Source of the DNA: Alphaproteobacteria bacterium
GTDB lineage: Bacteria > Pseudomonadota > Alphaproteobacteria > UBA828
NCBI GenBank assembly: GCA_050173345.1
Contig: JBFXKW010000001.1
Coordinates: 303,911-367,910, forward strand
Length of the DNA: 64,000 nt
Reading direction: 5' to 3'
Position 1 is the first letter of the stretch, and the number at the start of each line of letters is the position of its first letter. Below, piece by piece: positions 3,215 to 56,329 of this stretch. The notes beneath the pieces are model-generated. The model was not told the DNA's origin. It was given only the letters and a program-made list of their open reading frames with translations, and ran no database searches. The position numbers were made by a program, and so were the translations under genes.

Positions 3215-4051
3215 TTGGCCGAACCCCGTCACGTCAGGATCGGCGGCTTCGAGGTCGGCAACGACCTGCCGCTCGCGCTGATCGCAGGGCCGTGCGCGAT
3301 CGAGAGCCGCGAGCATGCGCTCGAGGTGGCCGAGGCGCTGGTCGAGATCACGGCGCGGCGCAAGCTGCCGCTGATCTACAAGAGCTCCTACGACAAGGCG
3401 AACCGCACCAGCCTGAAGGCCGCGCGCGGCATCGGCATCGACGAGGGCCTGCCCATCCTCGCCGAGGTGCGCGAGAGATTCGGCTGCCCGGTGATCACCG
3501 ACGTGCATCTGCCCGAGCAGTGCGCCCGCGCGGCGCAGGCGGTCGACGTGCTGCAGATCCCGGCGTTCCTCTGCCGTCAGACCGACCTGCTGGTCGCCGC
3601 GGCCGAGACCGGGCGGCCGGTCAACGTCAAGAAGGGCCAGTTCCTCGCGCCGTGGGACATGGCGAACGTGGTCGCCAAGCTCGACGCCAGCGGGAACCCG
3701 AACACGCTGCTCTGCGAGCGCGGCGCGAGCTTCGGCTACAACACGCTGGTCTCGGACATGCGCGCGATCCCGATCATGGCGGCGACCGGCTGCCCGGTGG
3801 TGTTCGACGCCACGCACTCGGTGCAGCAGCCGGGCGGGCAGGGCACCTCGAGCGGCGGCCAGCGCGAGTTCGTCCCCGTGCTGGCGCGCGCCGCGGTCGC
3901 GGTCGGCGTCGCCGCGGTCTTCATGGAGACCCACCCCGACCCCGACAAGGCGCCCTCCGACGGCCCCAACATGGTGCCGCTCAAGGCGCTGCCCGCGCTG
4001 CTCGACACGCTGATCGCGTTCGACCGTCTGGCCAAGGGCAGGCCGGCCTGA
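3215..4051 (+). CDS. kdsA: 3-deoxy-8-phosphooctulonate synthase (KDO8P synthase)
   Basis: 278 aa from a TTG start. Contains [10 protein letters not shown] and [11 protein letters not shown], which are typical KdsA sequences. Confidence 0.85.
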
Positions 4052-4087: not shown

Positions 4088-5416
<1,329 letters not shown>

Positions 5417-5970: not shown

Positions 5971-6975
5971 ATGGCACTCGCGAAGAAGAAGGAGCGGCCG
6001 GGCGGCGCGCCCCAGGCCAGCGGCGAGACGCTGCTCGCCTATTTTCGCGAGATGCTGCTGCTGCGCCGGTTCGAGGAGAAGGCCGGCCAGATGTATGGCA
6101 TGGGCCTGATCGGCGGCTTTTGCCATCTCTACATCGGACAGGAGGCCGTGGTCATCGGCATCCGGCACGCGCTCGGGCCGGGGGATTCGGTGATCACCGG
6201 CTATCGCTGCCACGCCCACCTGGTCGCTTCCGGCGCCGACCCGAAGGCGGTGATGGCCGAGCTCACGGGGCGCGCCGGCGGCATCTCCAAGGGCAAGGGC
6301 GGCTCGATGCACATGTTCAATCCCGCAGGCGGCTTCTATGGCGGGCACGGCATCGTCGGCGCGCCGGCGCCGCTCGGGGCCGGGCTCGCGCTCGCCAACT
6401 GGTATCGCGGCAATGACCGCGTCGCGGTTGCCTATTTCGGCGACGGCGCCTCCAACCAGGGCCAGGTGTTCGAGGCCTTCAACATGGCGGCGCTCTGGAA
6501 GCTGCCCGCCATCTTCGTGATCGAGAACAACCAGTACGCCATGGGCACGTCGCAGCAGCGCTCGACCGCGGTGCACGATCTCTATCGGCGCGGCGAGGCG
6601 TTCGGCCTGGAGGGCAGGCAGGTCGACGGCATGGACGTGGTCGCGGTCAAGGCGGCGGCGGACGAGGCGGTCGCATACTGCCGGAGCGGCAAGGGGCCGA
6701 TCGTGCTCGAAGCCCTCACTTACCGATACCGCGGCCATTCGATGTCCGACCCCGCGAAGTATCGCAGCCGGGAGGAGGTCGCGCGGATACGCTCCGAGCG
6801 CGACCCGATCGAGCATGTGCGCGAGCTCCTGCTCGAGGGCAAGCACACCGACGAGGACATGCTCAAGGAAATCGAGAAAGAGGTGAGGGCGGTGATCAAC
6901 GAGGCGGCCGAGTATGCCCAGAACAACCCGGAGCCCGCCGCCGCCGAGCTCCTCACCGACGTCTATGTGAGCTGA
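5971..6975 (+). CDS. pdhA: pyruvate dehydrogenase E1 component alpha subunit
   Basis: 334 aa with a TPP-binding motif ([23 protein letters not shown]) and [11 protein letters not shown]. Confidence 0.92.
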
Positions 6976-6991: not shown

Positions 6992-7975
<984 letters not shown>

Positions 7976-47031: not shown

Positions 47032-47118
47032 GGATGGGTGGCCGAGCGGTTTAAGGCACCGGTCTTGAAAACCGGCGTGGGTGCAAGCCCACCGTGGGTT
47101 CGAATCCCACCCCATCCG
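47032..47118 (+). tRNA. tRNA-Ser (anticodon UGA), class II with long variable arm
   Basis: Acceptor GGATGGG/CCCATCC, anticodon stem CCGGT/ACCGG with loop CTTGAAA, a long variable arm, T-arm GTGGG-TTCGAAT-CCCAC, discriminator G. Confidence 0.88.
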
Positions 47119-47265
47119 CCGGAAGCTCCTGTGGTCCGCCGAGGCCACTGCATAGCGCAATTGCCTCAGATCGAACGCCACGATGTGAAGCTCCCCAGGT
47201 GCCGCCCGCGCGGTCCAGCGCGCACATGAACGTTGCGGATCGAACCGTCCGAGGATACAAGCAAA

Positions 47266-47352: not shown

Positions 47353-47850
47353 GTGCCAAACGAACGCAATCTGAACCTCTATATCGCCCACCGGCGCAAG
47401 CTGGTGGAGTACGCGAACGGGATCGTCGGCGATCCCGGGCGGGCGGAGGATATTGTTCAGGACGCCTTCCTCAGATTCTGGTCCGCGGCCAGCGGCCGGC
47501 TTCTCGAAGAACCCGTCGGCTATCTTTATCGGGTCGTCCGCAATCTCGCCGTCGATCGCCGCCGCCAGCTGATGCTCGAAGAGCGGCACATCCGCGGCGG
47601 CGCCGAGGAAATAGCCGCCGACGTTCCCGAGGACATGCCGTCGCCGGAGCGCGCGTTGATCGCTCGCCAGGAGCTGCAACGGGTGATGGACGCGATGGCC
47701 GAGCTGCCCGAGCGCACGCGCATCGCCATGGAAATGCACCGCTTCGGCGGCTGCACCCTGAAGGAAATCGCGGAGCATTTCGGCATCTCCGTCTCCATGG
47801 CCCAGGTTCTGGTGACGGAAGGCGTCCGCCATTGCCAGCGCCGTCTCTAG
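47353..47850 (+). CDS. ECF sigma-70 factor, FecI/FoxI-like
   Basis: 165 aa from a GTG start. Region 2 (IVQDAFLRFW and YLYRVVRNLAVD) and region 4 (TLKEIAEHFGISVSMAQV). Confidence 0.85.
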   Translation: MPNERNLNLYIAHRRKLVEYANGIVGDPGRAEDIVQDAFLRFWSAASGRLLEEPVGYLYRVVRNLAVDRRRQLMLEERHIRGGAEEIAADVPEDMPSPERALIARQELQRVMDAMAELPERTRIAMEMHRFGGCTLKEIAEHFGISVSMAQVLVTEGVRHCQRRL

Positions 47851-47986
47851 TCGCGGTGCATGATGCCGGCTCTTCATTGGAAACGATCGTCCGCCATGCG
47901 TTTATTGACTAGGGAGCCTTCCTCATCCGTGTTTGGTCGGACGGTGAGCGCGACCTCCCGAGACGGGCACGGCCCAAGGGAGTGGC

Positions 47987-49036
47987 ATGACAACATCGCC
48001 GCAATCCGACCGTGAACGGGCCGAGGACGAAGCGGCGACCTGGCTCGTTCTTCTGTCCGACGCTCCCGACGATGCCGCGTTGCGCGCCCGTTTTGACGCC
48101 TGGCACGCCGCCAGCGACCTGAACGCCGAAATCTGGGCGCGCACCAGCCGCGCCTACGACCTAGTCGGCAAGGGGACGCCTCGGCACGAGGAGCATTGGG
48201 CGTCCTATGCCATCGGACGGGACACCGCCCGGTCGCTGCCGCGTGCGCGTCGTTCTTTTCGCGGTCCGCGGCGGCAAGGCGCACGTTTTTGGCGATGGCC
48301 TGTCTTCACGCCGTGGCGGCTCGGCGTCGGGATCGGCGCGGCGGCGCTCGCCGCCCTGCTGCTAATCGTGATCCTGCCGGGCGTATTGCTGCGCATGGAG
48401 GCCGACGCGGTGACGGCGACCGCGGAGCTGCGCACCATGACTTTGGAGGACGGCACGCGCGTCCAGCTCGCGCCGGAGAGCGCCATCGACGTGGCCTTCG
48501 CGGCCGACGAGCGCCGCGTCCGGCTGCTGAAAGGCGATGTCTTCTTCGAGGTGACGCCAGACCGCGCGCGGCCCTTTCGCGTCGTTGCCGGTGAGACCCT
48601 CACCACCGTGCTCGGGACGGCCTTCGAGGTGCGGCGCGGCGAGGACGGCGCTGCGGTGACGGTCCGGCACGGCCATGTCCGCGTCGAGGACGACAGCACC
48701 ACGCCGCGCACCTCGGAAGAGTTGCGCGACGGCGACTGGGTGCGCGTGACCTGGCGCGGCACGGCCGTGCGCGGCAGCGCGCAGGCGGACGAGATCGCCG
48801 ACTGGGTGCGCGGCGAGCTGGTGGCAAGGGATCGCCCGGCCGGCGAGGTCGTGGCCGCGCTGCGGCCCTACTACAAGGGGGCTATCGTGGTGCGGGACGA
48901 CGCCTTCGCAGGCCGGCACGTCAGCGGCATCTACGACCTGCGTGATCCCGTGAAGACCCTGCGCGATCTGGCCGCCTCCCATGGCGCCGCCGTGCGGCAG
49001 ATTACACCCTGGCTTCTCGTCGTCACGGCCGAATAG
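47987..49036 (+). CDS. FecR/FoxR-family anti-sigma/sensor protein
   Basis: 349 aa with an N-terminal anti-sigma region (AATWLVLL), a TM helix and a periplasmic FecR domain. Confidence 0.8.
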   Translation: MTTSPQSDRERAEDEAATWLVLLSDAPDDAALRARFDAWHAASDLNAEIWARTSRAYDLVGKGTPRHEEHWASYAIGRDTARSLPRARRSFRGPRRQGARFWRWPVFTPWRLGVGIGAAALAALLLIVILPGVLLRMEADAVTATAELRTMTLEDGTRVQLAPESAIDVAFAADERRVRLLKGDVFFEVTPDRARPFRVVAGETLTTVLGTAFEVRRGEDGAAVTVRHGHVRVEDDSTTPRTSEELRDGDWVRVTWRGTAVRGSAQADEIADWVRGELVARDRPAGEVVAALRPYYKGAIVVRDDAFAGRHVSGIYDLRDPVKTLRDLAASHGAAVRQITPWLLVVTAE

Positions 49037-49212
49037 CGGCCGGGGGCCCGCGATTTATTCCCGTTCTTCAATAGCCTGGAGCGATCCGCAAAAAAGTTTC
49101 CCCGATCCATTGGAAGTGGCCGACGGCCATCCGTTTGTTGAATAGAAGGGTGCGGTTGCGTCGCATTCGCATAAACACCCCGCCATTCGACTGATGGATT
49201 GAGGGGGAACTG

Positions 49213-51705
49213 ATGCTGCATTTGCGTTCGGCTGCCCGCCCTGACCGGGCGTGCGCTATCGGCCTCGCGGCCCTGATGATGACCACGGCCCTGACGGCGA
49301 TCGTGCCCGCGACACCGGCCTACGCCCAGGCGTCGACCGAAGCCGCCCAGCGCAGCTTCGATATCCCGAGCCAGCCGTTGACCGAGGCGCTCATCCAGTT
49401 CGGTCGGCAGGCCGGGCTTCAGGCATCCGCGGACGCCGCGCTCATGCAGAACCTGCGCAGCGCGCCCGTGCGCGGGACGATGACATGGCAGCAAGCGCTG
49501 ACAACGCTGCTGGCCGGCACCGGGCTGACCTGGCGACTCAACGGGTCGATGGTGGCGCTGGAGAAGCCGCCGCAGAGCGGCGACGGCACGATCATGCTCA
49601 ACCCGATAACGGTGGAGGGCCGGGCGAGCCCGTCGCAAACAACGGTGCTTGGCAACTTGCCACCGCCTTATGCGGGCGGACAGGTGGCCACCGGCGGACA
49701 GCTCGGCATGCTCGGCAACAAGGACGTGATGGACACGCCGTTCTCGCAGACCAGCTACACGAACAAGACGATTCAAGATCAGCAAGCGCGGACCGTTCAG
49801 GATGTTCTATTGAATGATCCGTCCATACTGACGAAACAAAACGGCGCGAGCGACGAAGACGGCTCAATAAATATCCGGGGCTTCCGGACCGCCCTGTCAT
49901 CCGGTTCCGGTAGTCTGAACGGGTTGGCGGGCATGTCTCCGTTGCGTTCGCCGGACATGGATTACGTCGAGCGCGTCGAGGTGCTTAGGGGGCCGAGCGC
50001 TCTGCTGAACGGCATGGCGGCATCCGGGGCAGGCGGTCCCGGCGGCTCGTACAACCTCGTCACCAAGCAGGCCGGCGACGAACCGGTCACCGAGCTGACC
50101 GCGCGGTATGGTTCCCTCTCGCAGCTTGGCGCTCATTTCGATGTCGGCCGCCGCTTCGGCGCGGAGAAGCAGTTCGGCATTCGCGTCAACGGAGCGTACC
50201 GCGAGGGCGATACGGCGGTGGAACCGATCTCCGCAGAAGTGGGATCGGCGGCGATCAATCTGGACTATCGCGGCGAGCGCGTCCGGGTATCCGCTGATAT
50301 CGCGCATCAGTCGAACGACGCCAGCCCTCAGAATATACAGCAGCTCGTTGTTAGCGGTGTCGGCGGCGGCGTCGTCTTCGTTCCGAAGGCTCCCGACGCC
50401 GGAACCAGCCTCAATCCCGTGTGGAGCGAACAACCCAGCAGCTTGACGCTAGGCATGGTGCGGGGCGAACTCGACATTACCGACAATGTCACGGCCTATG
50501 CCGCCATCGGCAAGCAGAAATTGGATTTCACGCTCATAGGCCCGAGCCAACCGAAGCTGCTCGATACGAGCGGAACTTATGGGTGGAGTAACGTCGAGCA
50601 CTCGAATTTTGCCTATGACGTGCTGTCCATGCAGGGCGGATTGAGGGCGACAGCGACGACCGGGCCGGTGGACCATGCCGTCAGCCTCAACCTGTCGCGG
50701 TCCGAGATGGAGACTGGAGAGGCGGGAAGGACAAGCCCATTTACCTACACCACGAACATCTACAATCCGATATTCGGCCCCGCTCCGTTCATCGCTGATC
50801 CTGGCGATCCGAAGAAAACAAGCGAAAGCCGCGTTTCCAGCACCGGCATCGCCGATACCTTGTCGATCCTCGACGAGCGGGTCCAGTTCACCGCAGGCAT
50901 CCGCTACCAGGAAGTGGAAGCCAGCAATTTCAACACGACGACCGGCGCCAAAACCTCCAGCTACGAGAGCGACGCATGGACTCCGGCTCTTGGGTTGGTC
51001 GTCAAGCCATGGGAGAACGTCTCACTCTACGCCAACTATATAGAAGATCTGCAGCGGGGAACCATCGCCGGCACACAGTATGCGAATGCTGGCGAGGTAT
51101 TTCCGCCCTATGTCAGCAAGCAGTACGAAGCGGGCGTCAAGGTCGACTGGGGAACGGTGACGACGACGCTGGCGGCGTTCCAGATCGCCCAACCCAACAC
51201 GGTCAGCATTGCCGGCACGCCGAAGCCGACGCTGGCGCTCGACGGCGAGGTACGCAATCGCGGTATCGAGCTGAACGCCTATGGCGAGGTCATGTCTAGC
51301 GTTCGCCTGATGGGTGGCGTCACCCTGATCGACGCCCAACAGACGAAGACCCAGGGTGGTCTCTATGACGGCAACCGGCCAGACGGCGTCCCAGTCGTCC
51401 GGACTGTGGTCGGCGGCGAGTGGGATATGCCGTTCCTGCAAGGCCTGACGCTGACCGGCCGCGTCACCTACACCGGCGATCAAGTGGCCAGCAGCAACAA
51501 CGAGAACTTGAAGATCCCTTCATGGGAGGTCGTCGATCTCGGTGCACGTTATGTCCTCGACTCGCCATGGAACGACGAGCCGATCACGCTCCGCTTCAGT
51601 GTCGATAACGTGTTCGACAAGGACTATTGGTCGGGAACGAACTTAAGGTATATCCAGCTCGGCGCGCCGCGCACCTTCTGGCTTTCGGCAACCGTAGAAT
51701 TCTGA
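49213..51705 (+). CDS. TonB-dependent siderophore receptor with N-terminal STN signalling domain (FecA/FoxA-like)
   Basis: 830 aa with a signal peptide, an STN domain (FDIPSQPLTEALIQFGRQAGL), a plug, a beta-barrel and a C-terminal aromatic residue. Confidence 0.9.
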   Translation: MLHLRSAARPDRACAIGLAALMMTTALTAIVPATPAYAQASTEAAQRSFDIPSQPLTEALIQFGRQAGLQASADAALMQNLRSAPVRGTMTWQQALTTLLAGTGLTWRLNGSMVALEKPPQSGDGTIMLNPITVEGRASPSQTTVLGNLPPPYAGGQVATGGQLGMLGNKDVMDTPFSQTSYTNKTIQDQQARTVQDVLLNDPSILTKQNGASDEDGSINIRGFRTALSSGSGSLNGLAGMSPLRSPDMDYVERVEVLRGPSALLNGMAASGAGGPGGSYNLVTKQAGDEPVTELTARYGSLSQLGAHFDVGRRFGAEKQFGIRVNGAYREGDTAVEPISAEVGSAAINLDYRGERVRVSADIAHQSNDASPQNIQQLVVSGVGGGVVFVPKAPDAGTSLNPVWSEQPSSLTLGMVRGELDITDNVTAYAAIGKQKLDFTLIGPSQPKLLDTSGTYGWSNVEHSNFAYDVLSMQGGLRATATTGPVDHAVSLNLSRSEMETGEAGRTSPFTYTTNIYNPIFGPAPFIADPGDPKKTSESRVSSTGIADTLSILDERVQFTAGIRYQEVEASNFNTTTGAKTSSYESDAWTPALGLVVKPWENVSLYANYIEDLQRGTIAGTQYANAGEVFPPYVSKQYEAGVKVDWGTVTTTLAAFQIAQPNTVSIAGTPKPTLALDGEVRNRGIELNAYGEVMSSVRLMGGVTLIDAQQTKTQGGLYDGNRPDGVPVVRTVVGGEWDMPFLQGLTLTGRVTYTGDQVASSNNENLKIPSWEVVDLGARYVLDSPWNDEPITLRFSVDNVFDKDYWSGTNLRYIQLGAPRTFWLSATVEF

Positions 51706-51708
51706 GCT

Positions 51709-51975
51709 ATGGTCGTATTTCTAGCGCTGGCGCTGACCATAGCCGGTTGTGTATGCCTTTACCTCGCCAGCCCCAATCAAAAGTGGCTGGCGCAGGCTCC
51801 TCCCGGAAAGGCTCTGCTCGTGGCGGGGGGTGTGCTGTTGGCGGCTGGCCTTGCCGCATGGATCGCGGCATTGCGGCCCTTGGCTGGCTTCTTCGTAGCG
51901 CTGCATGTTGCGATGGTTTGTCTCTTCGTCTTTCCTTATTCGGCCGCTCTCCGCAGCTTTGGGCGGAAGAATTGA
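51709..51975 (+). CDS. DUF3325-like small membrane protein
   Basis: 88 aa with 3 TM helices. Found in the typical position after a TonB receptor and before a PepSY gene. Confidence 0.55.
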   Translation: MVVFLALALTIAGCVCLYLASPNQKWLAQAPPGKALLVAGGVLLAAGLAAWIAALRPLAGFFVALHVAMVCLFVFPYSAALRSFGRKN

Positions 51976-51976
51976 C

Positions 51977-52270
51977 ATGCCAGGCGACATCCGTCCCGAC
52001 TGGTGGGGCAAGGCCAGCGCTGGGGCTATCCTCGGGCTAGGCCTCGCGCTCTCGCTGGTCGGCCTCTACGCCTATCTGGGGCCGGGGGGCATAGATGCGC
52101 CGGGTGGGCGCTACTCGCTGATGCGCTATCTGGAAGTGTTCGTCTGGATCGCGGTGTTCGGCTTCTGCTTCCTGTTTCGCAGCGGGCGCGCCGCTTGGGC
52201 GTGGCTCGGCGCGGCGAACCTCATCGCCTTCGCGGCGCTGTTTGCCTGTCGCTTCTACTTCTTCGCGTGA
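51977..52270 (+). CDS. small integral membrane protein (DUF3649-like), 97 aa
   Basis: ATG overlapping the previous stop (TGACATG). WW-containing N-terminus and 3 TM helices. Confidence 0.5.
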   Translation: MPGDIRPDWWGKASAGAILGLGLALSLVGLYAYLGPGGIDAPGGRYSLMRYLEVFVWIAVFGFCFLFRSGRAAWAWLGAANLIAFAALFACRFYFFA

Positions 52271-52277
52271 GGGCGAC

Positions 52278-52430
52278 ATGATCCGCGCCGATGTCGTCAG
52301 GCTCTACAAGACCGTTCATACATGGACCGGCATTACTTGCGGCTTTGCGCTGTTCATCGCCTTCTATGCGGGCGCGCTCACCATGTTTCAGGAGCCCATA
52401 GCACGCTGGGCGTCGCCGCGGCGATTGTAG
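52278..52430 (+). pseudogene. 5' fragment of PepSY-associated TM helix protein gene (FoxB-like siderophore-iron reductase family), truncated by IS insertion
   Basis: Starts MIRADVVRLYKTVHTWTGITCGFALFIAFYAGALTMFQEPIARWASP and then runs into the IS inverted repeat. Stop after 50 codons. Confidence 0.75.
52412..52419. repeat. 8-bp target site duplication GTCGCCGC (left copy)
   Basis: An identical octamer sits at 54811..54818 immediately outside the right inverted repeat. Confidence 0.7.
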
Positions 52431-52525
52431 CGTTGACAAACCCACATCGAGTGGTTGGGTGATGTTCAGTGGTTGTCAACCAACGCTTGATAGGAGCTAG
52501 CTGGCACCGCAATATGCGATGCAAT

Positions 52526-52572
52526 CTGACTAGCGAATCGCCGAGCGAATCGCCGAGCGAATCGCTAGTCAG
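52526..52572. repeat. palindrome containing three direct 12-bp repeats of GCGAATCGCC(GA) (iteron/operator-like)
   Basis: Direct read: ctgactagcgaatcgccgagcgaatcgccgagcgaatcgctagtcag. Confidence 0.6.
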
Positions 52573-52597
52573 ATCACGGTATGTGCGGTGAGAGAAG

Positions 52598-52681
52598 TGG
52601 CCCCGGCGGGATTCGAACCCGCAATCCCGGGAAGGAGGGCGATCCCAGATCGCCTGCGGTTACCAGTTTCGCCACGGGGCC
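52598..52681 (-). ncRNA. tRNA-like structure (cloverleaf with anticodon UGG/Pro, C at position 33, 3-bp D-stem, 15-nt class-II-type variable arm); probable pseudo-tRNA or tRNA-derived element inside the IS cargo
   Basis: Minus strand: acceptor GGCCCCG/CGGGGCC, anticodon stem GGCGA/TCGCC with loop TCTGGGA, variable arm TCC-TTCCCG-GGA, T-arm GCGGG-TTCGAAT-CCCGC, discriminator A, no CCA. Confidence 0.35.
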
Positions 52682-52683
52682 AT

Positions 52684-52730
52684 AGAGAGAAAAAGGCCTG
52701 CCACGCCTTTCCAGGGGATCGTGGCAGGCC
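52684..52730 (-). terminator. rho-independent terminator-like hairpin (11-bp stem ggcctgccacg/cgtggcaggcc, 14-nt loop) followed by T-run on the minus strand, immediately 5' of the tRNA-like element
   Basis: Direct read. Reverse complement gives ...cgtggcaggccTTTTTCTCTCT. Confidence 0.45.
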
Positions 52731-52816
52731 CAGTTCAAGGCTAGGTCACTGCCCACTTTCGGGCTGCGAGCGGACTCGGATAAATCCTAGGCCGCCCGAC
52801 TCCGCATGTTAGTACC

Positions 52817-53038
52817 GTGCGGAACTCGGGAACTATGGAGCCGGCCATGTCCAGCCGCAACGGGAATGTTCAGGGAAATAAAGGGAAATTGAGGGAAAAG
52901 GCGCGCTCGGTTGATCGCGCGCCGCCTGATGGACAAACCCGCCGTCGTGCAGAGCCAGTAAGCCTTGCGCCGTTGAAGTTCGAGGAGGCGGTTGGCGGGC
53001 TTCTCAAGGTGAAGCCAGGGCGCCGCAAGCTGGGCTAA
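52817..53038 (+). CDS. small basic hypothetical ORF (73 aa) in IS cargo, immediately upstream of the 260-aa cargo gene
   Basis: GTG start, stop 4 bp before the next start. Basic and low complexity, so coding status is uncertain. Confidence 0.3.
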   Translation: MRNSGTMEPAMSSRNGNVQGNKGKLREKARSVDRAPPDGQTRRRAEPVSLAPLKFEEAVGGLLKVKPGRRKLG

Positions 53039-53042
53039 GCGC

Positions 53043-53825
53043 GTGGCAGACGAGCGGCTGCTTCGGATCGAGCTCAAGAATTCGAAGCCGGTCGAACTTC
53101 TCGACCTGACAAAGAGCCTTTGGGCGCTTGGGCAGGCATACGAGGATTACGTCGCATCAGAGGGCGGCATCACGCCAGAAGGCGGCGTCAAGCTCTACAT
53201 CAAGGAGCTTCGGACCAGCAGCATCATCTCGCTGCTTCAGGAACTCCATGATCAGACGGCATTCCTTTGGGAGCATCGAGATTACCTGAGCCCCTTTCTC
53301 GCTCAGTTCAATGATCTGATTCAATTCTTCCTTTCGGAAACGCCAGCCACCGCGAAGCGAGAACCGACTCGTATTGAAGCCGAGCGCGTTGCGCAGGTTT
53401 TCGAGCCTGTCGCGAAAGATGGCGGGTCACAGCTCATTCTCCAGGTGCAAGGGGACTTGCACATGCCGGTCTACACCTTCAGCGCCGTGCAGGCGAACGC
53501 CGTGCAGAACCAGGTGAGGCGATTCCTAAGCCCGTCGCTCCCGGATCGCCTTGCGTTTCAGCTTGAGCCGATGACGCTCTTTCAGGTTAGGGACGATCCG
53601 AAGAGCCACCACGGCGATCGGGGCGTGATTGAACGGTTCAGCGCCAAAGGTGTTCGGCTGTACTTCTTAAGCGAGGATGCCAAACGAGCGGTTCTCAGCA
53701 AACCTGAGAACCCATTCCATCAGGTGTTCATCGTTGATGGCGAGGTGAAGCTCGCTGGCGGGCGGCCCGCGATCTACTACATTCGGACGGTTCACGATGC
53801 CTTTGACCGTTCCGAACTTGGCTGA
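53043..53825 (+). CDS. hypothetical protein (260 aa), IS cargo gene of unknown function
   Basis: Long ORF with balanced composition and lower GC than the surrounding genome. No recognisable catalytic motif. 3' end overlaps the convergent transposase gene by 34 bp. Confidence 0.5.
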   Translation: MADERLLRIELKNSKPVELLDLTKSLWALGQAYEDYVASEGGITPEGGVKLYIKELRTSSIISLLQELHDQTAFLWEHRDYLSPFLAQFNDLIQFFLSETPATAKREPTRIEAERVAQVFEPVAKDGGSQLILQVQGDLHMPVYTFSAVQANAVQNQVRRFLSPSLPDRLAFQLEPMTLFQVRDDPKSHHGDRGVIERFSAKGVRLYFLSEDAKRAVLSKPENPFHQVFIVDGEVKLAGGRPAIYYIRTVHDAFDRSELG

Positions 53826-54751
53826 GAGTACACAAGCCGCTTGCCTGCCGCCCCCTTGATCGCGCTTAGCGTCCGTTCGCCATCCTTGGCTTTCCGAGAG
53901 TTCCAACGGAACTCGAACTCCCGCAGATAGCGCGGCAAATGCTTCTCGCTGACATGGTGGTAGGAGCCGATCAGGCCACGCTTTAGCAGCGAGTGGTAGG
54001 ACTCGGCGAAGTTGGTATGCAGGATCACGGCGCGAACGTAGTGCTTGGAGTGATCGACGGCGTGGTGAGCCGCAAAGTGCTTATCCAAGCCCTCATAGCT
54101 CATGTGCGCGTCGGTAACGATGGTCGCGGACTTATCGACGATTGGCCGGGCGATCGTCTGTAGGGTCTGCTTTTTCGCGTTCGGGATCACGAAGGTCCGG
54201 GCCTCGCCCTCGCGGTCAACGAGCGTCATAACGGCGACCTTCTTGCCGGCCTTCGCGGTGCGCGCCTTGTGGCGGTTGTTGCTTGCCTTGCCGCCCACAT
54301 ACGTTTCGTCGATTTCGACCACGCCGCCGCCGGAGCCGAGCAGGGAACGCATTGGCTCGGCCTTCATGGCCTCGCGCACGCGATGGCACATGAACCAGGC
54401 GGCCTTGTAAGAGATACCCAACTCGCGCATGAGCTGGTTGGCGGAGACACCCTTGCGCGAGCTGCACATCATGTGGATCGCGTACAGCCACTTGTTGAGC
54501 GGGATATGCGAGTCCTCAAAGATGGTGCCGACGCGCACCGTGAATTGCTTACGGCAAGCGCCGCACTTCTTGAGGCCAAGGCGCTCGCGGCCCTTCTTGT
54601 CCTTCACGCCTTTGAGGACATACACGCGATCAACGGAGCCACAATGCGGACAAACCGGCCCTTCCGGCCACATCTGAGCTTCGATGAACTCAATGGCCGC
54701 AGCTTCGTCGGAGAAGTATCGGGCGAGTTGGATGGTGTTCATGGCGAGCAT
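53792..54751 (-). CDS. IS1595-family transposase
   Basis: 319 aa with an N-terminal zinc-ribbon (CPHCGS...CGAC) and a DDE domain. The similarity is to ISXO2-like/IS1595 transposases (MCSSRKGVSANQLMRELGISYKAAWFMCHRVREAM). Confidence 0.85.
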   Translation of the reverse strand: MLAMNTIQLARYFSDEAAAIEFIEAQMWPEGPVCPHCGSVDRVYVLKGVKDKKGRERLGLKKCGACRKQFTVRVGTIFEDSHIPLNKWLYAIHMMCSSRKGVSANQLMRELGISYKAAWFMCHRVREAMKAEPMRSLLGSGGGVVEIDETYVGGKASNNRHKARTAKAGKKVAVMTLVDREGEARTFVIPNAKKQTLQTIARPIVDKSATIVTDAHMSYEGLDKHFAAHHAVDHSKHYVRAVILHTNFAESYHSLLKRGLIGSYHHVSEKHLPRYLREFEFRWNSRKAKDGERTLSAIKGAAGKRLVYSQPSSERSKAS

Positions 54752-54810
54752 CCCAGTTGATGCCCGAAACCCTACCGGTAGCGGTTGGGTTTGTCAACGA
54801 CATAATCGCC

Positions 54811-56329
54811 GTCGCCGCCTGCCGTGGGTGTGGCAGCGGTTCCTTTGGACGATGCGCCCCGTCTCCTTGAATTGGTTGCCGCCGCGCATCCTGAAGCGCG
54901 GGAGGAAGGTATCAAGCTGCATCTGCGGGGACACGAGAACGAGCCCGCGCGGGTAACTTGGGAGGAGGACGAGCCACACGAGGCGGGTCAGCCGCATGGG
55001 CACGTCCATTGGTGGGCGACGCTCAAGCCTGACGGCACGCTATTGGCGGAGCAGGAGGAGCCGTCCGAACTGGCGGAGTTCATCAATGAAATCCACATGC
55101 GCGTCGGGATTCCAAGACCGTGGGGATCGTATTTCATGGGGGTGGTCTCGCTGCTCTACGGTGTGGCGCTGATCGCCGGCGTGATCGTACTGCTGCCGTC
55201 GCTCGTAAAGGACTTCCTTGCGCTGCGTCTCGGCACGAACCTCAAACGCATGTGGCTGGACGCCCACAATGTCGTCGGAATTACAGCACTCCCTTTTCAC
55301 ATTGCGATGGCGATAACCGCGACCGCATTGAGCCTCAGCGGCGAACTCTGGTCCATGCAGGAAAGTGTTATTTTTGGCGGCAAGCAAGAAATCCTGAACG
55401 AACTCGATAACGAGCCGTTTAGAGCGCCAAAGCCGACCGGCGAGGCGGGTGCAATGATGGCTCCCTCACAGTTGCTTCAAAAACTCAAAGTGCAGGTGCC
55501 CGATTTCGAGCCCCGCTTCATGATCTTCAAGAATATCGGAGACAAAGCTGCTTCGGTGAGAGTCGCCGGAGCCGAACGTGGCTATGTCGGAGATTACCAT
55601 CTTGGGGGCGTCATGCTCAGCGCCGTGACCGGCGAATTGCTCAAAGACCGCACACGTCCATCGCGTCAGGATCCGGATCGTCGAGCGTCAGAGACGTTCT
55701 ACGGCCTGCACGCCGGGCAGTATGAAGGGGCGACGATTACGTGGGCATACTTCTTCCTGGGTTTCTCCGGTGCGTGGCTGTTCTATTCGGGCAACCTCCT
55801 TTGGATCGAGACGCGCCGCAAGAAGGCGCGCAAGGGCGGTGAGGTCAAGCAGTCCCGTTCCACACGCCTCCTGGGCAGCGCGACCGTCGGCGTGTGCCTC
55901 GGCTGTGTGGCGGGCATCTCGCTCACTATCGCCACGACCAAATGGCTGCATGGCCACGTCGCCGACCTCAATCACTGGCACGAGTATGTCTATTATGCGG
56001 TGTTTCTTAGCTCAGTCGCATGGGCATTCGCATGGGGTGCGGCGCGTTCGGCGGTGCATCTGCTGTGGCTGTGCGCCGCCGCGACGATGGCGATCCCGCT
56101 GACGACTTTGCTGGCGCTGTTGTTCCCCGCGCTTGGGATGTGGGCGCATGGCAGCACAGCAACCATCGGCGTCGATGTCGTCGCCTTCATCGGCGCGCTC
56201 TGCTTCGCCTGGATGGCCATCGCTACCACGCGCCGGATCAGGAACGGCCCCACCGATAGCATCTGGTCCATCCGCAAGGCCGACAAGGAATCGTCCTCCC
56301 CATTGCCATCGGCCGTCCCGGCGGAATGA
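54811..56329 (+). pseudogene. 3' remainder of PepSY-associated TM helix protein gene (FoxB-like); could only be expressed as an N-terminally truncated product from GTG 54824
   Basis: Continues PAVGVAAVPLDDAPRLLELVAAAH... with PepSY domains and further TM helices. The frame is contiguous with the 5' fragment once the IS and one TSD copy are removed. Confidence 0.75.

Follow-up and report, generated by a model that had tools for sequence, protein, structure and literature searches.

A 64,000-bp stretch of alphaproteobacterial DNA (contig JBFXKW010000001.1, positions 303,911–367,910; the whole stretch is referred to below as the window) contains, at positions 52420–54810, a 2,391-bp insertion sequence (IS) of the IS1595 family with three passenger genes: a tRNA gene with the anticodon UGG, an open reading frame (ORF) for a small basic protein (ORF73) and an ORF for a 260-aa protein (ORF260). 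It is probable that this element is an intact, recently transposed transporter IS (tIS), and that the interval 52817–53825 (ORF73 plus ORF260), which had been flagged in a reading made from the sequence alone, is its variable passenger slot. This estimate applies to the whole explanation jointly, namely that (i) the element is a tIS, (ii) ORF260 is an accessory gene and (iii) ORF73 is tied to the tRNA and the IS backbone. The features of the element and of its insertion site are as follows.

52278–52430, plus strand: N-terminal fragment of a PepSY_TM (PiuB-like) gene (Pfam PepSY_TM, E = 5.4e-10, profile positions 3–39; public gene call)
52412–52419, no strand: left copy of the target-site duplication (TSD), GTCGCCGC, read from the sequence, with an identical copy at 54811–54818
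52420–52444, plus strand: left inverted repeat (IRL), GGCGATTGTAGCGTTGACAAACCCA (inverted repeat, register set by eye)
52524–52574, no strand: near-perfect 51-nt palindrome with three GAGCGAATCGCC repeats (inverted repeat and sequence)
52597–52681, minus strand: class II tRNA gene of the leucine type, anticodon UGG (ARAGORN, Rfam)
52695–52730, minus strand: GC-rich hairpin with an 11-bp stem (sequence and fold)
52817–53038, plus strand: ORF73, small basic protein (ORF list, public gene call)
53043–53825, plus strand: ORF260, 260 aa (ORF list, homologs, phrog_9226)
53792–54751, minus strand: IS1595-family DDE transposase, 319 aa, with an N-terminal zinc ribbon (Pfam, NCBIfam)
54786–54810, minus strand: right inverted repeat (IRR), reverse complement GGCGATTATGTCGTTGACAAACCCA (inverted repeat, sequence)
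54811–54818, no strand: right TSD copy, GTCGCCGC, read from the sequence
54845–56329, plus strand: C-terminal remainder of the PepSY_TM gene (Pfam PepSY_TM, E = 5.1e-37, profile positions 83–294; public gene call)

The assignment to the IS1595 family, made already in the sequence-only reading, was confirmed by three profiles of the transposase (Pfam DDE_Tnp_IS1595, PF12762, E = 5e-40; Zn_ribbon_IS1595, PF12760, E = 1.4e-10; NF033547, E = 8.7e-63) and by the boundaries of the element. The latter comprise 25-nt terminal inverted repeats (IRs) matching at 22 of 25 positions (inverted-repeat search, with the register refined by eye) and a perfect 8-bp TSD (GTCGCCGC) on both flanks, 8 bp being the length of the target duplication generated by IS1595-family elements. 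The IR tips (GGCGATTGT and GGCGATTAT), of the form GGCGATT(A/G)T, fit the sequence ggnnatTAT, which we take to be the consensus of the ISNwi1 subgroup, and the length of the element falls within the range of about 1.75–4.75 kb that we assume for tISs of this subgroup. The components are arranged in the order IRL, hairpin-flanked tRNA gene (minus strand), ORF73, cargo slot (here occupied by ORF260), convergent transposase gene and IRR. The DDE transposase moved this whole unit into the PepSY_TM gene, an event recorded by the 8-bp duplication and by the split gene, whose N-terminal 50 codons now end at an IS-borne stop (position 52430). The disrupted gene is located downstream of a cluster encoding an extracytoplasmic function (ECF) sigma factor, FecR and a TonB receptor. 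The locus belongs to the alphaproteobacterial metagenome-assembled genome GCA_050249575.1, and three further sequencing runs show the same insertion.

The coordinates of both ORFs, the 4-bp gap between them and the 34-bp convergent overlap of ORF260 with the transposase gene all proved correct. The extra DNA, estimated previously at about 1.3 kb, amounts to 1,372 bp between IRL and the transposase stop codon; the two ORFs had been recognized in it, but the tRNA gene and two strong hairpins had been overlooked. The lower GC content was also borne out: the IS has a value of 0.592 and ORF260 one of 0.575, compared to 0.674 for the window, and that of the IS is the lowest among all segments of 2,391 bp (0.3 percentile). 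The iron-uptake genes flanking the IS have a GC content of only 0.61–0.63. The suggested foreign origin of the cargo is upheld, both ORFs being genuine, conserved, low in GC and placed inside an intact IS1595-family element.

ORF260 starts with GTG, 4 bp past the ORF73 stop codon, and its 3′ end overlaps that of the transposase gene (53792–53825). A word-indexed search yielded 186 homologs, the nearest non-identical one sharing 58% identity (E = 3.5e-88), while a profile search of 1.84 billion representatives retrieved 1,474 clusters (50% identity) at E ≤ 1e-3 and 1,013 at E ≤ 1e-10. Among the best 150 of the 1,474 clusters, the proteins are mostly about 250–290 aa long (with few shorter fragments), are matched in a single stretch and show no fusions or extra domains. 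The alignment contains three conserved motifs with invariant polar residues (EPVAKDGGSQ, QANAVQN and GDRGVIE), and the phrog_9226 hidden Markov model (HMM) matches residues 5–255 over profile positions 12–259 of 261 (E = 1.3e-30). ORF260 is thus a real gene, representing a large single-domain family without an assigned function.

A recurrence of ORF260 on IS1595 elements had been proposed as a check, and it was found. The layout of a small ORF, an ORF260 homolog and a convergent IS1595 transposase gene recurs in loci L032/L033, L034, L004, L001, L002 and L003 (loci are designated by L-numbers), with 44–56% identity of the ORF260 proteins and 43–47% identity of the full-length transposases. The L032/L033 element, which resides in a prophage, is bounded by IRs at 4265–4293 and 7039–7067 (2,803 bp between them), and the 2,709-bp element of L034 by perfect 25-nt IRs (4025–4049 and 6709–6733); the IRs of L032 and L034 are related to IRL of the window. 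The L004 transposase is full-length, and those of L001, L002 and L003 are partial, decayed remnants. In L034 an additional 195-aa ORF (4143–4730, minus strand; no Pfam match) lies between IRL and the small ORF, i.e. in the position of the tRNA gene in the window.

The remaining homologs have other homes. None of the 28 viral loci (IMG/VR) carrying an ORF260 homolog contains an IS1595 transposase gene. In L240, the homolog is located between the genes for a tail assembly chaperone and a tape measure protein, together with an Ant-like antirepressor and a Sie-like (superinfection exclusion) protein, and in L228 directly upstream of the chaperone and tape measure genes. The homolog of Bordetella phage PHB09 adjoins BrnT/BrnA, in the region that separates the replication module from the terminase module. 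A 260-aa homolog (27% identity; phrog_9226, E = 2.2e-43) in a Neisseria gonorrhoeae prophage (L255, 6965–7747; accession no. NZ_CP119140.1, 1536375–1537109) adjoins a HicB-like antitoxin and two CI-like repressors. The latter accession is a gonococcal chromosome filed as a plasmid in PLSDB; apart from this mislabeled entry and distant IS1595 transposases, no related element or close homolog was found in searches of plasmids. In Brucella intermedia, an orphan ORF260 homolog is fixed across strains between an acyl-CoA dehydrogenase gene and purD, and further orphan copies occur in Bradyrhizobium, Magnetospirillum and other genomes, one of them beside prfB.

ORF260 homologs are therefore sporadic and mobile (ISs, prophages, orphan sites), so that the objection raised in advance by the sequence-only reading, that they might be common housekeeping genes, does not apply; nor is ORF260, with its 186 homologs, a chance reading frame. 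Since the homes of this gene are sister ISs, transposase-free temperate phages and orphan chromosomal sites, it appears to be a self-sufficient mobile accessory gene (neither a housekeeping gene, nor a virion component, nor a transposition factor). The IS lineage, temperate phages and chromosomes have all acquired it repeatedly.

ORF73 was described previously as a 73-aa basic ORF. It is real and basic, but the length is probably different: the frame spans 73 aa from a GTG codon, and translation is more likely to start at ATG 52847 to give 63 aa, because this codon is preceded by GGAG 6 nt upstream and the public annotation calls a 63-aa protein. Its four orthologs (L002, L157, L225 and L226) share, after a variable basic N-terminus, an invariant C-terminal core, KPVSLAPLxFE[ED]A[LV]xxLL. 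In all 10 pairwise comparisons of these orthologs and the window copy, the proportion of synonymous differences (pS) exceeded that of non-synonymous ones (pN), with dN/dS of 0.3–0.6 where unsaturated, which indicates a real gene under purifying selection. In five of five cases ORF73 and the UGG tRNA gene are divergent neighbors on opposite strands, 135–154 bp apart. No match to ORF73 was found in Pfam, NCBIfam or PADLOC-DB v2 (PADLOC E ≤ 1).

The closest of these orthologs, those of L157 and L225 (59–78% core identity), are followed by different cargo. L157 contains the UGG tRNA gene and the ORF73 ortholog, but 133-aa and 197-aa membrane proteins, unrelated to ORF260, take the place of the latter; L225 is similar. 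The L157 IRL, GGCGATTGTAATGTTGACAAACCC (L157, position 136), matches IRL of the window at 23 of 25 positions. Because the ortholog precedes membrane proteins in L157 and L225 and the L157 IRL is nearly identical to that of the window, the slot behind the small gene is exchangeable within one IS lineage. The passenger half of the element consists of a constant part (hairpin, tRNA, small protein) plus a variable slot, filled here by ORF260. The distribution of the components is as follows: L059 and L149 carry the IS1595 transposase and the UGG tRNA without ORF260, L032 and L034 an ORF260 homolog without the tRNA, and the window and L002 both.

The sequence-only reading had regarded ORF73 and ORF260 as a two-gene module, and an obligate pair of this kind (a toxin-antitoxin, TA, or a two-component defense system) would explain why only 4 bp separate the two genes, why their counterparts overlap in L032 and L034, and why, in every IS-linked copy, ORF260 is directly preceded by a small ORF whose basic product has a similar motif at its C-terminus (the looser relatives, with the motif hxxhhxxhhK.PPKP, in L001, L003, L032 and L034). 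However, the co-occurrence data largely refute it, and we regard such a module as unlikely. ORF260 occurs without ORF73: no small ORF was found upstream of the orphan chromosomal copies or of the copy in PHB09, tblastn searches with ORF73 or its L157 ortholog gave no match in the 28 viral loci, and B. intermedia maintains ORF260 alone as a fixed gene. Conversely, the closest ORF73 orthologs precede other cargo, and in L149, which lacks ORF260, a looser relative of ORF73 is located downstream of the tRNA gene. Furthermore, neither protein matches a toxin, antitoxin or defense model. Since ORF260 occurs without ORF73 and the closest orthologs of the latter precede different genes, ORF73 belongs to the IS backbone/tRNA unit and is not a partner of ORF260. 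Most plausibly, it would be a small protein that serves the tRNA unit or transposition, either in regulation or by binding nucleic acids.

A second alternative assumes that ORF260 is an accessory transposition protein (involved in target choice, regulation or immunity) that has co-evolved with the transposase. Its position and convergent orientation are indeed kept in at least five divergent elements whose transposases share 43–47% identity. Against this, the homolog occurs without any transposase at the 28 phage loci and at many orphan sites, sister elements dispense with ORF260 (L157, with the nearly identical IRL, as well as L059 and L149, with the IS1595 transposase and the tRNA), and Pfam scans of ORF260 revealed no nucleic-acid-binding or ATPase signature. 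The probability of this explanation is low.

It is still less probable that ORF260 acts on or with the UGG tRNA by modifying, protecting or charging it. The two are found together in the window and in L002, and in L008, L014 and phage PHB09 no more than 500 bp separate another family member from a tRNA gene. However, no tRNA gene is present within 5 kb of the homolog at the 28 viral loci, and in the sister ISs the two components are separate (ORF260 without the tRNA in L032 and L034, the tRNA without ORF260 in L157, L225, L059 and L149); a functional link was rejected on these grounds. Finally, the notion that ORF260 is a phage structural (tail) protein captured by the IS, prompted by the L228 homolog in the usual slot of the major tail protein, is scarcely credible and was likewise rejected, since the homolog in L240 is preceded by a distinct major tail protein and chaperone and stands among Ant-like and Sie-like genes, the PHB09 and Neisseria copies lie in early/immunity regions, no similarity to a tail tube fold was found in the PDB, and fixed orphan copies occupy non-prophage chromosomal sites.

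ORF260 is thus best regarded as a gene that would act alone as an accessory protein to the benefit of the host or prophage; the IS would carry it passively, with the benefit to the host favoring its persistence. As to its role, a defense or TA function had been considered earlier, and the moron-slot positions in prophages fit a role in lysogenic conversion or exclusion. Because the prophage homologs occupy such slots beside TA, Sie-like, Ant-like and CI genes and need no fixed neighbor, superinfection exclusion, phage defense or another phage-host interaction is the most likely function, although this assignment is only tentative.

Several observations weigh against the explanation given above. 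In agreement with the statement that ORF260 has no assignable motif, it gave no match in Pfam, NCBIfam or PADLOC-DB v2 (E ≤ 1), the unannotated phrog_9226 being the only hit, and Pfam analysis of 28 family members yielded nothing. The structural check proposed earlier was performed with an alignment-based AlphaFold2 model (mean local confidence, pLDDT, 82): Foldseek found no fold neighbor in the PDB (best E = 0.02, TM-score about 0.15), a sequence profile search of the PDB found no relative, and the structural neighbors in BFVD are uncharacterized phage proteins. PADLOC analysis of 10 proteins encoded next to orphan and phage copies produced a single weak candidate, so that an enrichment in defense islands is not supported. 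Moreover, the position and orientation of ORF260 are constant in the IS-linked copies and its coupling to the small upstream ORF is tight, and this constant placement could instead reflect a role in the biology of the element itself. It should also be kept in mind that most of the metagenomic contigs are short and that several element boundaries are incomplete.

The third passenger, the UGG tRNA, was identified by ARAGORN as tRNA-Pro(tgg) of 85 nt and by Rfam as a tRNA (50.3 bits, E = 3.4e-9) with an 11-nt insert in the variable arm. Inspection of the sequence and of the Rfam alignment revealed a long variable arm, a 3-bp D stem, G1-C72, A73, A14, G18G19 and U54-A58, with the 7/5 acceptor/T-stem geometry. 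These are the features of the body of a bacterial class II tRNA-Leu, but the anticodon is not one of leucine (NAG or YAA). As regards tRNA-Pro, the anticodon NGG (G35, G36) and A73 are present, whereas the class I body of tRNA-Pro (variable loop of 4–5 nt, C1-G72, G15:C48 and G37) is not: the variable arm is 13–17 nt long, the first pair is G1-C72, position 15 is A, and G37 occurs in only 6 of 10 copies.

Ten copies of this tRNA were collected: that of the window, six from a scan with a D/T-arm sequence pattern (a pattern which corresponds to tRNA-Leu in 168 of its 186 metagenomic and viral matches) and three from L002, L225 and L226. The copies outside the window are located at the following positions.

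L002, 4560–4646
L059, 447–531
L067, 1207–1290
L149, 1026–1110
L154, 1324–1406
L157, 470–555
L172, 6592–6679
L225, 233–318
L226, 67–153

All ten have the anticodon UGG and A73, and at least five encode CCA (only partial in the window copy). In an alignment of eight copies, 99.4% of the stem cells are paired and eight pairs change on both sides, a result reached by none of 500 shuffles; in slid controls the proportion of paired cells fell to 34–51%. The acceptor and anticodon stems vary freely among these copies yet stay paired. The nearest relatives of the UGG tRNAs are each other and four tRNAs with the anticodon UUA (ochre), and the nearest canonical tRNA is tRNA-Leu(UAA). A one-step origin from tRNA-Leu(UAG) by an A35G change is not supported for this reason, the UGG and UUA tRNAs clustering together.

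At least five of the ten copies (window, L002, L059, L149 and L157) are located beside an IS1595 transposase gene. Within the loci of the D/T-arm scan, a transposase gene was found in 3 of 6 with UGG tRNAs versus 1 of 180 others (hypergeometric p of about 7e-5, by our own arithmetic), and the sole exception among the latter, L094, corresponds to a standard tRNA-Leu situated at an integrase site. Of the four UUA sisters, which have the same type of body (L099, 2895–2979; L108, 3782–3866; L052; viral locus L210), two adjoin IS1-family-like DDE transposase genes (PF03400), an indication that recoding tRNAs carried by ISs may form a broader class.

The tRNA gene is flanked by a hairpin and a palindrome. 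On the upstream side, the GC-rich hairpin ends at a distance of about 13 nt from the tRNA 5′ end, with a U-run behind it on the minus strand; equivalent hairpins, 5–15 nt upstream of the tRNA, are present in L002, L157, L225, L226 and L149, so that the structure is conserved in six elements (including the window), although the sequences are unalignable. On the downstream side, 22 nt separate the tRNA 3′ end from the 51-nt palindrome, a possible terminator. A scan for consensus (sigma-70-like) promoters of the tRNA gene placed none, and a terminator scan detected two terminator-like sites, no more than were obtained with shuffled sequences.

Two further observations concern the UGG tRNAs. The anticodon loop of the window copy, UCUGGGA (52636–52642), contains C33 and G37, and the same loop occurs in L059, L157 and L225. 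U33 is nearly universal in tRNAs; C33 is present in four of the ten UGG copies, always with G37, and in the remainder U33 is combined with A37 (four copies) or G37 (two). In addition, a conserved protein of about 90–105 aa with a WEDS...WQW motif (no Pfam match) accompanies the tRNA in L149 (1274–1591, minus strand) and L154 (834–1097), both of which lack ORF260; the two proteins share 41% identity, and in L149 the gene forms an operon with the IS1595 transposase gene.

Bacterial leucyl-tRNA synthetase (LeuRS) relies on A73, A14 and the tertiary core formed by the D and T loops, and does not require the anticodon arm in order to charge the tRNA (PMC9976931). Since A73, A14 and the D/T-loop core are all present, leucylation of the UGG tRNA by LeuRS is plausible, and a tRNA charged in this way would read the proline codons CCA/CCG as leucine. 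The determinants of prolyl-tRNA synthetase (ProRS) are partly present (G35, G36 and A73, but not G72 or G15:C48, and the body is not of class I); an unusual proline iso-acceptor and a non-translational RNA are the alternatives. Leucine decoding by the window copy must be viewed with caution in the light of its C33, its partial CCA and the promoter scan, which placed none. The idea that the element needs its own tRNA for proline codons at conserved leucine sites of the transposase was rejected, as it is borne out at just a single variable column, and not in the window copy.

It is conceivable, although we consider it a minority possibility, that the hairpin-flanked tRNA and the small basic protein constitute a mobile recoding device, by which IS1- and IS1595-type elements would spread regulated, proteome-wide mistranslation. 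With the A37 variants the outcome might instead be +1 frameshifting at CCN codons; A37 beside a proline anticodon would be without m1G37, and such shifts might be favored. The UUA cousins on IS1-like elements would cause read-through of stop codons to spread. The payloads traveling with the tRNA/small-protein core would then be ORF260 and the alternative membrane proteins.

The iron-uptake cluster (ECF sigma factor, FecR, TonB-dependent receptor) together with the inactivated PepSY_TM gene spans 47353–56329 and has a GC content below the window mean. A tRNA-Ser(UGA) gene at 47032–47120 is located just upstream, and because of this adjoining tRNA gene the whole cluster may be an island.

These results place ORF260, hitherto one more hypothetical protein, in a defined family of about 1,500 clusters that moves between temperate phages, ISs and chromosomes, and that appears to be a good candidate for a new single-gene function in phage-host interaction, with tractable members in the N. 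gonorrhoeae prophage, B. intermedia and Bordetella phage PHB09. As its fixed slot can receive different cargo, the IS1595 lineage offers a small model of how ISs become gene vehicles. To a specialist, the most surprising part is probably the tRNA/small-protein unit: a disagreement between body and anticodon is very rare among the natural tRNAs of bacteria, and if the UGG tRNA is charged with leucine, a transposable element could alter the reading of the genetic code by its host, which would bear on how codon reassignment and adaptive mistranslation begin and spread.

In comparison with known systems, the element as such is not new in kind, since IS1595 elements carrying passengers are established as tISs (Siguier, Gagnevin and Chandler 2009, as cited in PMC3129680); the statement in the sequence-only reading that members of this family are normally single-gene elements needs to be amended in this respect. 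Like the ISNwi1-type tISs, the element of the window has a DDE transposase with a zinc ribbon, short IRs, an 8-bp duplication and passengers between one IR and the transposase gene. It differs in the nature of the passengers, which include a tRNA of non-canonical type and a small basic protein that is conserved, together with a slot of exchangeable content, and a literature search found no report of tIS passengers of this composition.

ORF260 and its gonococcal homolog share with phrog_9226 a full-length HMM match and, in the latter case, carriage by a phage; phrog_9226 is an unannotated, phage-only family, in which the IS1595-borne and orphan chromosomal copies are not captured. The ORF260 family resembles prophage morons (single genes of the exclusion or abortive infection, Abi, type) in that it is sporadic, has an atypical GC content and stands alone in variable slots between phage modules, with TA, Sie-like, Ant-like and CI genes as neighbors. 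It has, however, no sequence or fold relation to characterized exclusion or defense proteins.

For the tRNA, the closest parallels are the allo-tRNAs, irregular tRNAs found near TA loci and transposon genes in soil metagenomes (Mukai et al. 2017, PMC5389517). Allo-tRNAs and the UGG tRNA have in common a long variable arm, a mismatch between anticodon and body, and mobile or TA neighbors, but the former have 8/4 or 9/3 geometry and serine identity, whereas the latter has 7/5 geometry, a leucine-type body and A73. The literature searched contained no earlier account of a tRNA carried by an IS, nor of a leucine-type tRNA(UGG). Mistranslating tRNAs known from other sources include the actinomycete tRNA-ProX, yeast tRNA-Ser(UGG) and anticodon variants of human tRNA-Leu (PMC11415595, PMC9258585, PMC11028032). 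The shared logic is that a synthetase blind to the anticodon (LeuRS, or the seryl- and alanyl-tRNA synthetases, SerRS and AlaRS) charges a tRNA that reads other codons, and yeast tRNA-Ser(UGG) reads the same proline codons as the IS-borne tRNA(UGG). The actinomycete tRNA-ProX, the only natural bacterial case of disagreement between body and anticodon listed in a 2024 review, is the inverse, having a proline body, a non-proline anticodon and a dedicated ProRSx. The other mistranslating tRNAs are laboratory constructs or rare alleles, whereas the UGG tRNAs form a conserved, covarying and IS-carried family, for which charging with leucine is plausible.

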